A stretch of 44,989 nt of DNA from Verrucomicrobiota bacterium (GTDB taxonomy: Bacteria > Verrucomicrobiota > Verrucomicrobiia > Limisphaerales > CANJXF01). Of this stretch, positions 7,581 through 44,552 are shown one piece after another. Positions within the stretch are counted from its first letter, which is position 1. Each line of letters opens with the position of its first letter. The notes under the pieces are model-generated. The model had not been told where the DNA came from and did not search any database. It worked only from the letters and a program-made list of their open reading frames with translations. The stretch covers positions 1-44,989 of the forward strand of contig JBBQRQ010000037.1 in the NCBI GenBank assembly GCA_038214755.1. The letters run 5' to 3'. Position numbers and translations under genes: made by a program.

Positions 7581-8240
7581 AAGCAACCTCGTCAGCTATA
7601 CGACGACATTGACCGATAACTTGAATCAGTCTCCCGCGTTCTACGGCTATACGGTTAATTCACCTGCTCCAGAGTCTTCATTCCCAACTTGGGATTACGT
7701 GAATGGCTATACAGTCGTCGTCAGTAGGAACGCATTCGGTGCTGCTGGTTTCGGCGGGGTCACCATTGGGCTGGTCCATAATTCGCCGGCCAAGAAGGGT
7801 AACAATGCCGTTACTCCCACCAACTGCACCCAATGTGTAACTAATATCGCCTACGCAGGCACGAACCGTAATGGGATGCTTGTTGCCATGGCCTCTGCCC
7901 AGGAAGCCGTCTGCACTGGAAACCCGCCGGGCTGCACTCTCGGTCCTTGCACGCCTCCATATCCTTTCCCAAGCACCAACGCCTTGACGAGCATTGCCTT
8001 TAATGAAAGTGAGGTATTGCGAACCAGTAAGGTTTCCGTCGTGACGGGCTGCATCCCAAATCAGATCCAAGTCTTCTACAACGACGAACACGCATTGACC
8101 CTTGGCATTCGCGAGGTGAACGTGCTGAGGAAATCGGGGAAGATTACGACCACTAGCTACCCCGTTACGCCGCTGGGATCAAATCCTGGCACCGCGCTGA
8201 ACCCCTTGGTAGGCTCGACCCAAACCACTGGCGACCAGGG
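7580..8240 (+). pseudogene. Internal fragment of a Thr/Asn/Pro/Cys-rich secreted or surface protein
   Basis: Protein-like composition only between ~7580 and 8240; upstream is the antisense of another fragment and downstream reads into a REP element; no signal peptide or proper start. Confidence 0.55.
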
Positions 8241-8352
8241 GACCCGTTCCCTGCTTTGGCTGCACAGTGAAAAAGCCAGGAAGGATCTTTTTGAGCACTT
8301 CCTGCATCGCGCAACGTGCAGGAAAAGCGGCGCCATGCCGCCGCCCCTCCAA
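8238..8352. repeat. 5'-truncated REPIN of the (TTG)GAGTGCGG family
   Basis: GGGGAC..TCCC..CTTTGGCTGCAC matches 31272-31299 at 22/28; right arm GCAGGAAAAGCGGCGCCATGCCGCC matches 31607-31631 at 24/25. Confidence 0.7.
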
Positions 8353-17681: not shown

Positions 17682-17824
17682 GTAGCATCTGCCTCCGGCG
17701 GGTGCGAAGACGTTTTCCGAAACGCCGATCTCCCAATCGGTCGTTGGCATAAGTATCAATCCGTGCCGATCCGGAGATCGGCGCTCCGGGAGGTCTTTTC
17801 GCACCCGCCGGAGGCAGATGCTAC
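17682..17824. repeat. Nested REPIN: GTAGCATCTGCCTCC outer pair around a GCCGATC inner pair
   Basis: GTAGCATCTGCCTCCGGCGGGTGCGAA / TTCGCACCCGCCGGAGGCAGATGCTAC; inner AACGCCGATCTCC / GGAGATCGGCGCTCC. Confidence 0.85.
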
Positions 17825-17935
17825 CCCGAAAGCGGCGCGGAGCGATCCGTGCCGTTTTATTTGGGCAACTCCCGCCAGGAATTTGGGATAGCAATCCACC
17901 TCCATTCGCGTTAAAAATTTAACGCAATCACAAAT

Positions 17936-21405: not shown

Positions 21406-21520
21406 TAGGAGCGCGGACAGCCTTGTCCGCGAGGGATAAGAAAAATAGTCAGAGCGAGGGGCAAGTTAGGAACTGCGCTCCTATATTTTCGACTCGCGGA
21501 CAAGGCTGTCCGCGCTCCTA
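21406..21520. repeat. REPIN downstream of the RAYT gene
   Basis: TAGGAGCGCGGACAGCCTTGTCCGCGAG / CTCGCGGACAAGGCTGTCCGCGCTCCTA perfect arms. Confidence 0.93.
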
Positions 21521-22191: not shown

Positions 22192-22307
22192 AAGGAGCGC
22201 GGACAGCCATGTCCGCGAGGAGATGAGAACAACGGTCAAAGCTCTTGGCAACTTGCGAACTGCGCCTTAATACTTGCACTCGCGGACATGGCTGTCCGCG
22301 CTCCTAC
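22192..22307. repeat. REPIN upstream of the RAYT gene
   Basis: AGGAGCGCGGACAGCCATGTCCGCGAG / CTCGCGGACATGGCTGTCCGCGCTCCTAC. Confidence 0.93.
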
Positions 22308-30363: not shown

Positions 30364-31194
30364 TTAATCCGCAGTTTCCGCATAACTCAAATACGCCTCG
30401 TGCAGAATTGGCGTAAGCGGCGAGCGGCGCAAGGCGTGCTCGTCCAGATAGGAAACTTCGCGGACTCCAATGGCGATGGACGTCAGAAAAACGCTGTCCG
30501 CCTGTTGCAAAAACTCCGGCGTAATATTTTTTTCGGCGGTTGAGATTTTCAATTTTTTGCAAAGTTCGATCACCAGTCCACGAGTCACCCCAGGCAACGC
30601 CCCACTGTTCAACGGCGGTGTGCAAACCGTTTTAGTTTCAATCCAAAATAAATTGGCGCTCGTAGCTTCAGCGACATTTCCCTCCGTGTTCAGCAGCAAC
30701 GCTTCGTCCGCGCCTTTTTCATCCGCTTCCATCCGCGCGAGAACATGGGGGAGTTTGTTGCAAGTTTTAAATCCTGCCAGCGGATCGTTGGCGGGAATCC
30801 GAATGGAACTCGTGATGATCTTGAAAGGTGAAGAATTTTTTGCCGCGGGATGCAAACTCATGACGAGCGTCGGTAGGTCCGAGCCTCTAATCGAGTAGCC
30901 GCGTGGCCCGACTCCGCGAGAAAGTTGGATGCGCAAAACGCAATCGCCCGGGTGATTTTTTTCGAGAAGTTCTTCGGCGAAAGCGCGGATGGCTTCCGCC
31001 GAAAATGGAATTTTAATTTTCAGGAAATCCGCGCCGGCTCGCAGTCGTTCAAAATGTTTTTCCCACAAAAGAATTTTGCGATGGTAAACCGGCAACGCCT
31101 CAAACAATCCATCGCCCAATGAAAAGCCGCGGTCAAAAATGGAAACGGTCCCCTGCTCTTCCGGGACAAATTTGCCATTGAGAAATACGAGCAC
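30364..31194 (-). CDS. Class IV PLP aminotransferase (PabC/IlvE/D-amino acid aminotransferase-like)
   Basis: DRGFSLGDGLFE, H.ERL, FKTCN, EALLLN..G.VAE...ANLF, LPGVTR. Confidence 0.9.
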   Translation of the reverse strand: MLVFLNGKFVPEEQGTVSIFDRGFSLGDGLFEALPVYHRKILLWEKHFERLRAGADFLKIKIPFSAEAIRAFAEELLEKNHPGDCVLRIQLSRGVGPRGYSIRGSDLPTLVMSLHPAAKNSSPFKIITSSIRIPANDPLAGFKTCNKLPHVLARMEADEKGADEALLLNTEGNVAEATSANLFWIETKTVCTPPLNSGALPGVTRGLVIELCKKLKISTAEKNITPEFLQQADSVFLTSIAIGVREVSYLDEHALRRSPLTPILHEAYLSYAETAD

Positions 31195-31218: not shown

Positions 31219-31638
31219 AGCGCGGCCAAGCCGCAACCAAAGTGGCGGGCGCGGCGCGTATTTTTGAGTGCGGGGACAATGTCCCCTCTTTGGCTGCACG
31301 TTGGAAAAAGAAAAAGAGTTCCGTGAGTTCGCAAGCTTCTTCTCTCCATGAACCCGCTGTAGCCGCCGACGTGAGGAGAAAACCACCGACGGAAAGTTAG
31401 GGCGTCGGCCCCACGAACCGGCAAGCGTTGGTAGGGCGCGTCACTCCGTGCGCGCCGGGGCGACACTAGGGCAAGTGTGACGCGCCCTACCTTGAGGTTC
31501 ATGGATAGGCAGAAACTCGCGTGCCAAATCCGCCTCCGCACGTCGGCAGCTACGGTTCATGGTTCAATGCGCGGAAAAAATTTTGGGAACTATCTCCCCA
31601 AGGCGCGCAGGAAAAGCGGCGTCATGCCGCCCCAGTCC
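31219..31638. mobile_element. Multiply nested REP/MITE composite
   Basis: Five concentric inverted pairs (see findings) preceded by the AGCGCGGCCAAGCCGCAACCA motif. Confidence 0.8.
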
Positions 31639-31684
31639 GCATGGTTGAACTTGAAAAATTTTTTGCCGCGTATCTCCTGTGCGA

Positions 31685-32908
31685 ATGCCGGCAAAAAACG
31701 GGAAGCTCGAATATCTGGAACTAATTGCACTTTTCTTTTTGCAAGGCGCGGCGCTGGGCATGTGGTTTGTCCCGCTCAGTTCAGTCCTGGAAGCGCATGG
31801 CTTGCGGTCCATCCGTCCTTACGCATTTGCGGCGTCGGCGCTCGCGGCGTTTGTTTCTCCGCTGATCTTCGGCGCGATGGCGGATCGACACGCCTCGCCC
31901 ATAAAGGTTTTACGCGGACTTTCATTCGCCACGGCTGCGATGATGACCGTCGTCGGCGCGGCCATCCAATCTCATTACAATCCCTGGCTGGTGCTGGCGC
32001 TAATTCAATTTCAAGCGCTTTGCTCGTCACCCACCTGGAGCATTTCTTCCGCAATTGTTTTTGCGCGCCTGGGCGACGCCAGAAAAGAGTTCGGACCGAT
32101 CCGCGCGATGGGGACGTTGGGCTGGATGGTGGGTTGTTGGTTCGTCAGCTTGCTCAATGCGGACGCATCAACTTCCGCTACTTTCAGCGCGGCGGCGGCA
32201 TGGTTGATCGTGGGCGTGTTTACTTTTTTTCTGCCGCAAGTCGCGTCATCCAAAGTGGTGGGGCGCGTCTCGTGGAGCCAGCGCTTTGGGCTCGACGCTT
32301 TGACGCTGTTGAAAAATCGCGATCATCGCGTCGTGTTCATCATGCTGGTTTTGGTCAGCATCCCACTCGCGGCGTTTTATCCGTACGCGCCGCCGCATCT
32401 GCGTGAACTCGGCCTGCAACACGCCAGCGCCTGGATGACGCTGGGACAAGTCACGGAGATGATCGCGATGTTCAGTCTCGGCGCGCTCTTATTGAAGTGG
32501 CGATTGAAATGGATTTTTGCGTGTGGCTTGGGATTTGGCGTCGCCCGATTTGCCTTGAGCGCGGTCAACACCCGCCTCGGGCTACTCTTTGGCCTCCTGC
32601 TCCACGGCGCTTGTTACACGCTCATTTTCATCACTGCCCAAATCTATCTTGAGCTTCGGGTGGACTCCGCGTGGCGCGCGCGGGCGCAAGCCCTGCTCTC
32701 ACTCATGAGCGGCGGCGTGGGCAATCTCCTCGGCTATCTCGGCACAGCGGTATGGTTCAGCGCATGCACTCAACTCTCTGTCACACGATGGCCGCTTTTT
32801 TGGAATGGCCTCGCGCTGTCTGTCGCGGTGATTGCGATCTATTTCCTGGCGGCCTATCGCGGATTAGGGGCGAAAGTTGAAAAGCAAACGAACAAGTCAA
32901 TGGGATGA
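31685..32908 (+). CDS. MFS transporter (nucleoside:H+ symporter NupG/YegT-like)
   Basis: 12 TM pattern, FFLQ...GMW, GAMADR, FGPIRAMGTLGW, FGLDALTLLK, MTLGQVTE, AQALL. Confidence 0.88.
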   Translation: MPAKNGKLEYLELIALFFLQGAALGMWFVPLSSVLEAHGLRSIRPYAFAASALAAFVSPLIFGAMADRHASPIKVLRGLSFATAAMMTVVGAAIQSHYNPWLVLALIQFQALCSSPTWSISSAIVFARLGDARKEFGPIRAMGTLGWMVGCWFVSLLNADASTSATFSAAAAWLIVGVFTFFLPQVASSKVVGRVSWSQRFGLDALTLLKNRDHRVVFIMLVLVSIPLAAFYPYAPPHLRELGLQHASAWMTLGQVTEMIAMFSLGALLLKWRLKWIFACGLGFGVARFALSAVNTRLGLLFGLLLHGACYTLIFITAQIYLELRVDSAWRARAQALLSLMSGGVGNLLGYLGTAVWFSACTQLSVTRWPLFWNGLALSVAVIAIYFLAAYRGLGAKVEKQTNKSMG

Positions 32909-38367: not shown

Positions 38368-38442
38368 GTAGGGCGCGTCAAAACCTGCGCGCCGGATTCA
38401 TATCTTTCCAAGCGACCGCGCGCACGGAGTGACGCGCCCTAC
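38368..38442. repeat. REPIN, GTAGGGCGCGTCAC family
   Basis: GTAGGGCGCGTCA..TGCGCGC / GCGCGCACGGAGTGACGCGCCCTAC; same family as 31431-31490. Confidence 0.85.
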
Positions 38443-42550: not shown

Positions 42551-42620
42551 GTAGCCGCCGACGTGAGGAGGCGGATTCGTCCTTTTAAAATGAAGTCCGC
42601 CTCCTCACGTCGGCGGCTAC
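42551..42620. repeat. REPIN, GTAGCCGCCGACGT family, between convergent genes
   Basis: Perfect 25-bp arms GTAGCCGCCGACGTGAGGAGGCGGA. Confidence 0.92.
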
Positions 42621-44269: not shown

Positions 44270-44552
44270 GATTCCTCGACGTTTTCAGTGGAATAAAAGA
44301 GAGGACGTGGACAGGAGTCCCCGATCATTGGCCGATGACGCAAAGTTTTGGAGGCGGCAAATCGACCCTGTCGCGGACGGGGGGTGTAGGACTTGGCCCT
44401 CGCGTGAAGAGCGGTGGAGGGCCACCGCAGTCCAAGACGCTATCGCGCGGTTCATGCCTCATCAAAATCCGCGCGAGCGTCTCGGACTGCGGTGGCCCTC
44501 CACCGCTTTTGAGAAAGACAGATTTCTATTCCACTGAAAACGTCGAAGAACC
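44270..44552. mobile_element. ISL3-like MITE carrying a REP pair
   Basis: TIRs GATTCCTCGACGTTTTCAGTGGAATA / TATTCCACTGAAAACGTCGAAGAACC; flanks TGTTTTCT / TGTTTTTT (8 bp, 1 mismatch); inner pair 44407-44510. Confidence 0.78.

Follow-up and report, generated by a model that had tools for sequence, protein, structure and literature searches.

The palindromic nest at positions 31219 to 31638 of the window, the 44,989-nt stretch of contig JBBQRQ010000037.1 analysed here, consists of a C-family REPIN-like shell which has received a carrier cassette loaded with REPIN-A, which in turn has received a carrier cassette loaded with REPIN-B (C-REPIN < W[REPIN-A] < W[REPIN-B]). Since layers 2 and 3, as well as layers 4 and 5, each constitute one carrier cassette, the nest is the product of two targeted insertions. 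The carriers, visible as layers 2 and 4, are very probably non-autonomous derivatives of a clade of IS110 elements, whose recombinase and bridge RNA would act in trans and insert the cassettes at guide-matched CT dinucleotides. The feature is explained by known parts, in a combination for which no description was found.

Results

Structure and surroundings of the nest

The five pairs of motifs which the initial annotation had described as nested palindromic layers are all present in the window sequence where it had placed them. Layer 1 is a bipartite, REPIN-like shell of the C family (31264..31638, + strand), which starts with its left hairpin at 31264, ends with its right hairpin at 31610-31638 and is split at the CT of 31342-43. 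The arms assigned to this layer, at 31264 and up to 31638, do exist, but they are different hairpins of one bipartite element instead of an inverted pair, and the stretch 31219..31243 (+ strand) is a separate motif outside the five layers. Layer 2 is the motif pair CCATGAACC at 31346 and GGTTCATGG at 31554, which represents the ends of the outer carrier. Layer 3 is a GTAG-tagged REPIN-A (31359..31553, no strand assigned) with 90% complementary arms at 31359-78 and 31534-53, which serves both as cargo of the outer carrier and as target of the inner one. The ends of the latter form layer 4 (CCACGAACC at 31411 and GGTTCATGG at 31496), and its cargo is layer 5, a GTAG-tagged REPIN-B (31430..31491, likewise without strand), the arms of which (31430-44 and 31477-91) are 100% complementary, the right one being shortened. 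The view of five independent palindromic layers had to be abandoned, as layers 2 and 4 are not hairpins, extend asymmetrically well beyond their 9-bp repeats and each belong to one cassette with the REPIN that they enclose.

The folding proposed as a check turned out as expected, the nest region reaching a z value of -5.0 that was equalled by none of 100 shuffles. It contains 20 9-mers together with their reverse complement, whereas the shuffles, in two sets of 300, averaged 3.0 and did not exceed 14. Contig pieces of one sequencing run, possibly the source of the assembly, tile the nest with zero mismatches, no single piece spanning it and the overlaps between the pieces amounting to only 16-30 nt; since the DNA occurs in this possible source run only, the read search adds no independent support for the nest.

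The nest is flanked by a class IV aminotransferase gene (30364..31194, - strand; PF01063, E 8.7e-61), which is divergent from it, and by a gene of the MFS nucleoside:H+ symporter family (31679..32908, + strand; PF03825, E 8e-56). A promoter-like stretch upstream of the MFS gene (31645-31680, TTGAAA ... TATCTC) is left intact by the nest and resembles, by eye, that of MFS homologues from the same genus. The flank motif at 31219-31243 precedes several different and unrelated repeat families of the genome, at about 15 loci, and may be one end of another carrier family; no right-hand partner was found by eye. The proposed comparison with the spacers of relatives yielded no orthologous empty site, as gene order is not conserved: in each of the 13 close homologue loci inspected, the MFS gene lies among other neighbours.

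REP and REPIN families of the genome

The genome of the window (G000; 5.1 Mb in 175 contigs, 97% complete) is very rich in hairpin repeat families, with 331 arms of REP-A, about 70 of REP-B and 71+47 of the C family. Layers 3 and 5 are REPs/REPINs as judged from their GTAG-tagged arms, inverted pairs and dispersed copies, and layer 1 shows another tag (GACTGC/GAGTGC) and unlike arms. The un-nested versions of layers 1, 3 and 5 noted before are confirmed as stand-alone copies within the window (8238-8352, 42551-42620 and 38368-38442, respectively), and their families are multi-copy genome-wide. Among the paired copies of the C family, 48 of 51 are empty at 131-144 nt, compared with 391 nt for the copy in the nest, while 111 of the 137 paired copies of REPIN-A are of empty size.

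Further nests do exist, as shown by a genome-wide catalogue of 43 nested pairs. Their order is mostly one-way, as the ordered nesting of the initial annotation suggests, with the exception of families A and D, which are found in both directions. The compound A[W[B]] recurs at about 8 loci, and a four-layer nest of the type carrier-in-REP-in-carrier is present at C49:3535. Nests in loops are represented by 12 D-family REPINs around L-family REPINs, which are devoid of carrier ends, and by several REPIN-in-REPIN nests in REP-A spacers. One two-layer nest of the D-around-L type lies inside the window at 17682-17825. At three other loci (C1:74376, C21:28795, C81:2320), a shell with long terminal inverted repeats (GGGCGCATCT...) surrounds K-family REPINs inside REP-A spacers, and a G-family REP pair at 44410-44510 of the window holds a GGTTCATG-like 9-mer in its spacer, which was not parsed as a carrier.

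The genome contains 17 Y1/RAYT matches (PF01797), none of which has A, B or C arms on both flanks, so that no cognate RAYT for layers 1, 3 and 5 was found among them; a single fragment is situated about 470 nt away from a REP-A pair. An intact-looking RAYT gene of the window (PF01797, 21518-22279, - strand) is flanked on both sides by GGAG-tagged REP pairs (21410-21520 and 22195-22305) and constitutes the REPtron of a family absent from the nest. Three further loci carry RAYT domains together with their REPs in frame within long host ORFs of 1440, 970 and 1003 aa (C33:16136, C64:10402 and C88:19561, i.e. L009, L013 and L014).

The carrier cassettes

Both carriers follow the asymmetric layout CT-NN-CCATGAACC...cargo...GGTTCATGG-~31 nt-CT, with a CT core at both ends. 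The outer cassette W[REPIN-A] (31344..31595, + strand) comprises 252 nt including the inner insert and is bounded by CT at 31342-43 and 31594-95. Its short end (31342..31354, + strand) consists of the core CT at 31342-43, NN = CT and CCATGAACC, and is the same as the B box, the end of IS110 elements on the downstream side of the recombinase gene; its 42-nt long end, termed T-type (31554..31595, + strand), has the core CT at 31594-95. The inner cassette W[REPIN-B] (31379..31508, - strand) comprises 130 nt and is bounded by AG (=CT) at 31377-78 and 31507-08. Its long end (31377..31419, - strand) of about 43 nt contains an internal hairpin, ends in the core CT and is the same as the A box, the end of IS110 elements on the upstream side of the bridge RNA, and its short end (31496..31508, - strand) reads GGTTCATGG-AT-AG on the + strand. 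The cassettes of the window have kept both parent ends, show zero coding capacity, are multi-copy and have empty alleles. They differ from classical MITEs, which have inverted repeats at their extreme termini and a target duplication: here, 2 nt separate the 9-bp repeat from one core and about 31 nt from the opposite core, and the two ends have nothing but the CT in common.

Cutting the insertions in silico restores sequences which are common elsewhere: REPIN-A without the inner cassette has 113 matching places, while the outer cassette without the inner one (a cut that is one base short) and layer 1 without its insert match at 11 and 42 places, respectively, over at least 85% of their length. 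The serial insertion proposed by the initial annotation is borne out by these empty alleles, but not the hairpin loop as its site, since the inner cassette is located in the arm of REP-A, directly after GTGAGGAG. The usual continuation is missing in 32 of 360 REP-A arms, 13 of which hold a cassette directly after GTGAGGAG; these 13 differ in cargo, with 5 kinds, and in their inverted repeat, with several variants, and TGG-AT-AG closes 10 of them. Four REP-A hosts of W[B] that keep both arms have mutually unrelated spacers (mean score -0.18), each being closer to some empty copy (0.44), which fits independent insertions. REP-A holding a carrier is found without an outer carrier, and outer carriers are found without insert, so the two insertions of the nest are possible in either order. 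The carriers at REP-A sites (C5, C9, C11, C12, C49, C83) differ in their inverted repeat, e.g. CCACGACGC / GCGTCGTGG, and keep the stem and TGG-AT-AG; only the bases read by the guide are fixed in these variants.

Near-empty carriers were detected in 13 of 401 genomes and are multi-copy in forms with a 5-nt loop (8 in G134), a tally which, like those of the recombinase relatives and the MFS homologue loci, counts the unpublished genome G205; a phylum-wide set with only 2 other genomes of the order yielded none (0/401). One near-empty carrier with the short end on both sides forms a 31-nt near-perfect palindrome (L244; G655 C56:16213-16243). Rfam gave no match above the gathering score for carrier and junction at 6 loci. 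Inside carriers, a further nesting layer is added by an IS1111-like element, which enters the cargo REP at GT-AG, encodes a 365-aa protein, has a long non-coding end on its downstream side and is present in 5 identical copies in G800 (L270:720-2290 and L286:704-2290, in G800 and G131); it was rejected as carrier parent, being a passenger.

Cassette arrays in related genomes

The joined form long end-CT-short end measures 51-55 bp and is absent from the genome of the window. It was found in 30 of 201 genomes of the order, with up to 96 copies per genome, and only as array junctions; a reversed control matched 1 genome. The junctions join cassettes head to tail in a polar manner, with up to four or five in succession. 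Among 59 array starts not chosen for CT, 50 have this dinucleotide where it was expected, with no conservation further out. The hairpin of the long end is supported by covariation, with 104 double-change cells in 56 non-redundant 52-mers from relatives, compared with 34 +/- 6 in shuffled and at most 43 in slid controls. The 185 array cargos of at least 30 nt fall into 53 clusters, 154 of them are strong hairpins, and 59 of 68 pairs of adjacent cassettes differ in cargo. Among these 185 cargos, neither a signal for capture via a TAG junction nor any resemblance to the leader or gene was seen.

A scan of sequence collections retrieved at least 121 stretches with the junction motif, and 75 of 80 records among the matches listed bear Verrucomicrobiota titles, which, with the presence of the motif in genomes of the order, points to a Verrucomicrobiota bacterium as host of the nest. 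Records titled Myxococcota, Lysobacterales and Planctomycetota contain the motif as well (L130, L147, L186, L161), which together with an autonomous copy on a Caballeronia plasmid (see below) indicates that the family is not confined to Verrucomicrobiota. Viral contigs gave 0 junction matches. The 151 junction loci contain no autonomous copy, their six long gaps being host genes or composite repeats, and no recurrent mobile gene was seen in the ORFs beside them.

The probable parent clade of IS110 elements

Scanning the IS110 and Y1 loci of junction-rich genomes with profiles of the ends revealed recombinase genes framed directly by both carrier ends, and no RAYT wrapped by carrier ends among the Y1 loci scanned. 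The recombinase P0001 consists of 447 aa and matches PF01548 (E 2.9e-16) and PF02371 (E 3.1e-9); the residues D18, E61, D98, D101 and S335 read from its sequence are those which we take to be catalytic. A search of PDB sequences gave no match for P0001, and relatives are present in 39 of 401 genomes. The end-bearing recombinases form one clade (10 of 26 tree rows, support 98/97) in a tree that left out rows of less than 330 aa plus one duplicate and carries a long-branch warning at its base; two members scored as 'none' by the strict pattern do show the left end by profile score. In 80 metagenome loci, those too short on one side not being counted for that end, the ends go along with protein identity: at 56% or more the left end is present in 21 of 29 and the right end in 22 of 24 loci, at 46-56% in 2/12 and 3/6, and below 46% in 0/28 and 0/28.

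The elements start with AG and the A box, which measures about 42 nt and contains a hairpin; the leader and the gene follow, and a short B box with AG closes the element. As in the IS110 family, a dinucleotide core stands at both ends without any longer target duplication. The T-type long end also flanks autonomous copies (L260, L308-L311, L333, L354, L355, L360, L366); L308 and L309, among others, are inserted in the hairpin family that also hosts the outer-type carriers of the genome of the window. The cognate recombinase is found together with junctions in G699, G662 and G057, whereas no recombinase of the clade was found in the 97% complete, 175-contig genome of the window; either its cassettes are old, or the assembly lacks the gene. 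An IS110 of this genome (L018, C98:1-1420), its only PF02371 match, lies 2 nt from the site used by outer-type carriers; it was ruled out as parent, as its ends are different; its core is a CT within an M-family hairpin. A member with the ends of the clade and matching guides is present on plasmid NZ_CP049319.1 of the cultured soil strain Caballeronia sp. SBC2, with 7 matching places (L411), so that the model can be tested.

Predicted bridge RNA and its guides

The leaders of 12 elements fold to two internal loops, with double changes in 24 of 49 pairs of the consensus fold, and the leader of the clade is predicted to represent a two-loop bridge RNA. The following counts cover those of 46 elements in which both parts were parsable, and the permutation values are overstated, related elements not being independent. 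The 3' side of loop 2 reads TGG-NN-AG, with NN equal to the element's own short end in 25 of 26 cases (shuffled mean 6.2, maximum 17). The 7-mer on the 3' side of loop 1 agrees with the insertion flank in at least 6 of 7 positions in 25/25 elements, 23 of them perfectly (permuted mean 5.2, maximum 12). In 8 of 27 elements, the target guide itself reads TGG-NN-AG, the family's own short end. In G699, the junctions with the long end of the resident element show the guide-predicted TT in 5/5 cases, two of which are ends of autonomous copies, and the other junctions in 0/10.

For outer-type carriers, the target 7-mer AGGAGAG is present in 8 of 11 other parsed copies, and the outer site of the nest, TGGGGAG, matches it in 5 of 7 positions. 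The exact REP-A site of the inner cassette is occupied elsewhere by a sister IS110 with the guide TGAGGAG (L316, G737), a guide seen in this sister lineage only and in 0/27 of the clade. The left target guide had no match on either strand at offsets 0-27 (largest |z| 2.4). For the left donor guide, the matching segment begins 3 nt within the inverted repeat, some 20-30 nt from the core and on the strand opposite to the IS621 rule; this distal offset is best in 27 of 28 elements, with a mean of 7.4/10 compared with 6.65 after permutation. The left guides thus deviate from the IS621 rule, and the geometry is not the textbook one.

Discussion

Proposed mechanism

The carriers would have kept both recombination ends, with a REPIN replacing the bridge RNA and the recombinase gene. 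A complex of recombinase and bridge RNA supplied in trans may join these ends at the CT core, presumably generating a circle with a junction reading long end-CT-short end, and would direct the cassette to a CT that is followed on its right by 7 nt agreeing with the right target guide. Nests would result from guides directed at REP arms, and polar arrays from guides directed at the family's own short end, so that the mixed arrays apparently go back to those guide RNAs which recognise the end of their own element. The cargo may be acquired when REPINs enter the loop of near-empty carriers, in the way that they enter one another; alternatively, the near-empty carriers may be deletion products. 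A more extended version, towards which we incline slightly less than to its opposite, is that target guides of the clade were repeatedly set to the family's own donor end, and that gene-less end pairs thereby form integron-like polar arrays and transport dozens of REPIN families unrelated to each other; the donor would possibly be read as a single strand in folded form, the two donor guides lying on the same strand around the covarying hairpin. Single-stranded circles and half-match recombination are reported for IS621 in the available text of 10.64898/2026.08.31.748434, and by analogy such circles would fit the donor geometry seen here.

Other explanations

If the ends descend from IS110 while the present cassettes are moved by a RAYT (TnpA-REP) which binds the cargo hairpin and cuts C|T, the strong hairpins in 154 of 185 cargos would be accounted for, as would a genome with 17 PF01797 matches and no cognate IS110; C|T located 5' or 3' of a REP is described as the TnpA-REP cleavage site (PMC8266576, text available). 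Nevertheless, we regard this as improbable, because near-empty carriers with 5-nt loops are multi-copy, the insertion sites share a 7-mer beyond CT that follows the bridge guides, the carrier ends wrap none of the RAYT loci scanned and no RAYT of the genome is flanked by B or C REPs, only one fragment being near a REP-A pair. Even less credit is due to the original proposal of five independent palindromic families inserting serially into each other's hairpin loops via an undescribed structure-targeting system. Loop nests of REPINs with mostly one-way order do occur, the cargo may have entered the loop of an empty carrier, and a target stem-loop serves as specificity gate for ISPpu10 as far as the available text of 10.64898/2026.03.19.712850 goes, so that structure may contribute. 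However, the inner cassette is hosted by an arm instead of a loop, and layers 2 and 4 are asymmetric IS110 ends with RNA guides of a known type; given the arm site and the guide covariation, the proposal is largely refuted for these layers. The machinery belongs to the known bridge-recombinase family of IS110, and the targeting points to a 7-nt RNA guide.

Least credible of all is a compound nest formed as an assembly chimera of repeats or amplified as a unit from one founder, although no contig piece spans the nest, the pieces overlap by only 16-30 nt and the A[W[B]] compound recurs at about 8 loci. The tiling is free of mismatches and each type of junction recurs at other loci. Moreover, the host spacers are unrelated to each other (-0.18) and find better matches among empty copies (0.44), the same site is used by five different cargos, and another nest at C49:3535 reaches four layers.

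Significance

Insertion by an IS110 recombinase with its bridge RNA acting in trans would represent a second, RAYT-independent route for the spread of REPINs and bears on the open question of their dissemination. It would also explain a conspicuous repeat of 51-55 bp which reaches up to 96 copies per genome in relatives. Finally, the clade would provide natural variants of the bridge code, namely a one-sided target guide of 7 nt, a distal donor guide, a donor hairpin and self-aimed guides, which are relevant to off-target behaviour and to the stacking of DNA cargo in series.

Comparison with known systems

Published work already covers the insertion of IS110 elements in REPs, one gene-less module of this group and tandem growth at the ends of IS110 elements. 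The literature searched, with ISfinder, figures and supplements lying outside the search, yielded no description of these ends, of REPIN-carrying IS110 cassettes or of self-targeted arrays; a named element with these ends may exist. Integron arrays consist of polar head-to-tail cassettes with a structured joining site, conserved ends and a variable centre, and grow at the cassette start. The arrays described here resemble them in their polar head-to-tail cassettes joined by a structured site, but their boundary is a CT core instead of a G/TT crossover, they show no attC consensus, their cargo is non-coding, and the enzyme is an RNA-guided DEDD recombinase instead of IntI. BIME arrays repeat the same few REP types, whereas the cassettes of the present arrays vary in content and meet at IS110 cores.

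As tagged and paired hairpins in multiple copies, layers 3 and 5 resemble the GTAG-tagged REPs, REPINs and BIMEs associated with RAYT (Di Nocera 2013, PMC3733652; Corneloup 2021, PMC8266576). The available texts of these two papers describe several coexisting REP families in Opitutus terrae and REP dimers within longer palindromes in Anabaena, Thermomicrobium and Halothiobacillus, and give no mechanism for such shells.

The closest precedent by layout is ISPpu9 of Pseudomonas putida KT2440, a member of the IS110 group with a 43-bp A box containing an inverted repeat and a 16-bp B box, which inserts in REPs, together with MITEPpu9, a gene-less module with the ISPpu9 boxes that circularises in trans, can stand in tandem and carries one sRNA gene (PMC12288879, available text). 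The boxes described here measure about 42 and 13 nt, and AG crossover on the gene strand and insertion in REPs are shared. In contrast to the single sRNA gene of MITEPpu9, the 185 cargos in 53 clusters are unrelated repeats that differ in 59 of 68 pairs of neighbouring cassettes, and, unlike in ISPpu9, several guides aim at the family's own end.

With IS621 (Durrant et al. 2024, PMC11208160, available text), the clade shares a DEDD + Tnp recombinase, an upstream two-loop RNA, the CT core and right guides pairing with the top strand, but it differs by the 447-aa protein, the gene on the strand opposite to the CT core, the lack of a left-target match and the left-donor guide, which matches a distal segment beside a covarying hairpin. 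The text available of 10.64898/2026.08.14.744561 contains no mention of non-autonomous, MITE or Verrucomicrob-. The expanded IS110 loci reported there and in 10.64898/2026.08.31.748434, as far as these texts are available, resemble the present system in tandem non-coding units at the ends, one-sided guide matches and donor-only excision; the units of those loci lie next to the transposase, whereas those described here are gene-less and dispersed, carry a mixed REPIN cargo and have target guides set for the donor end.
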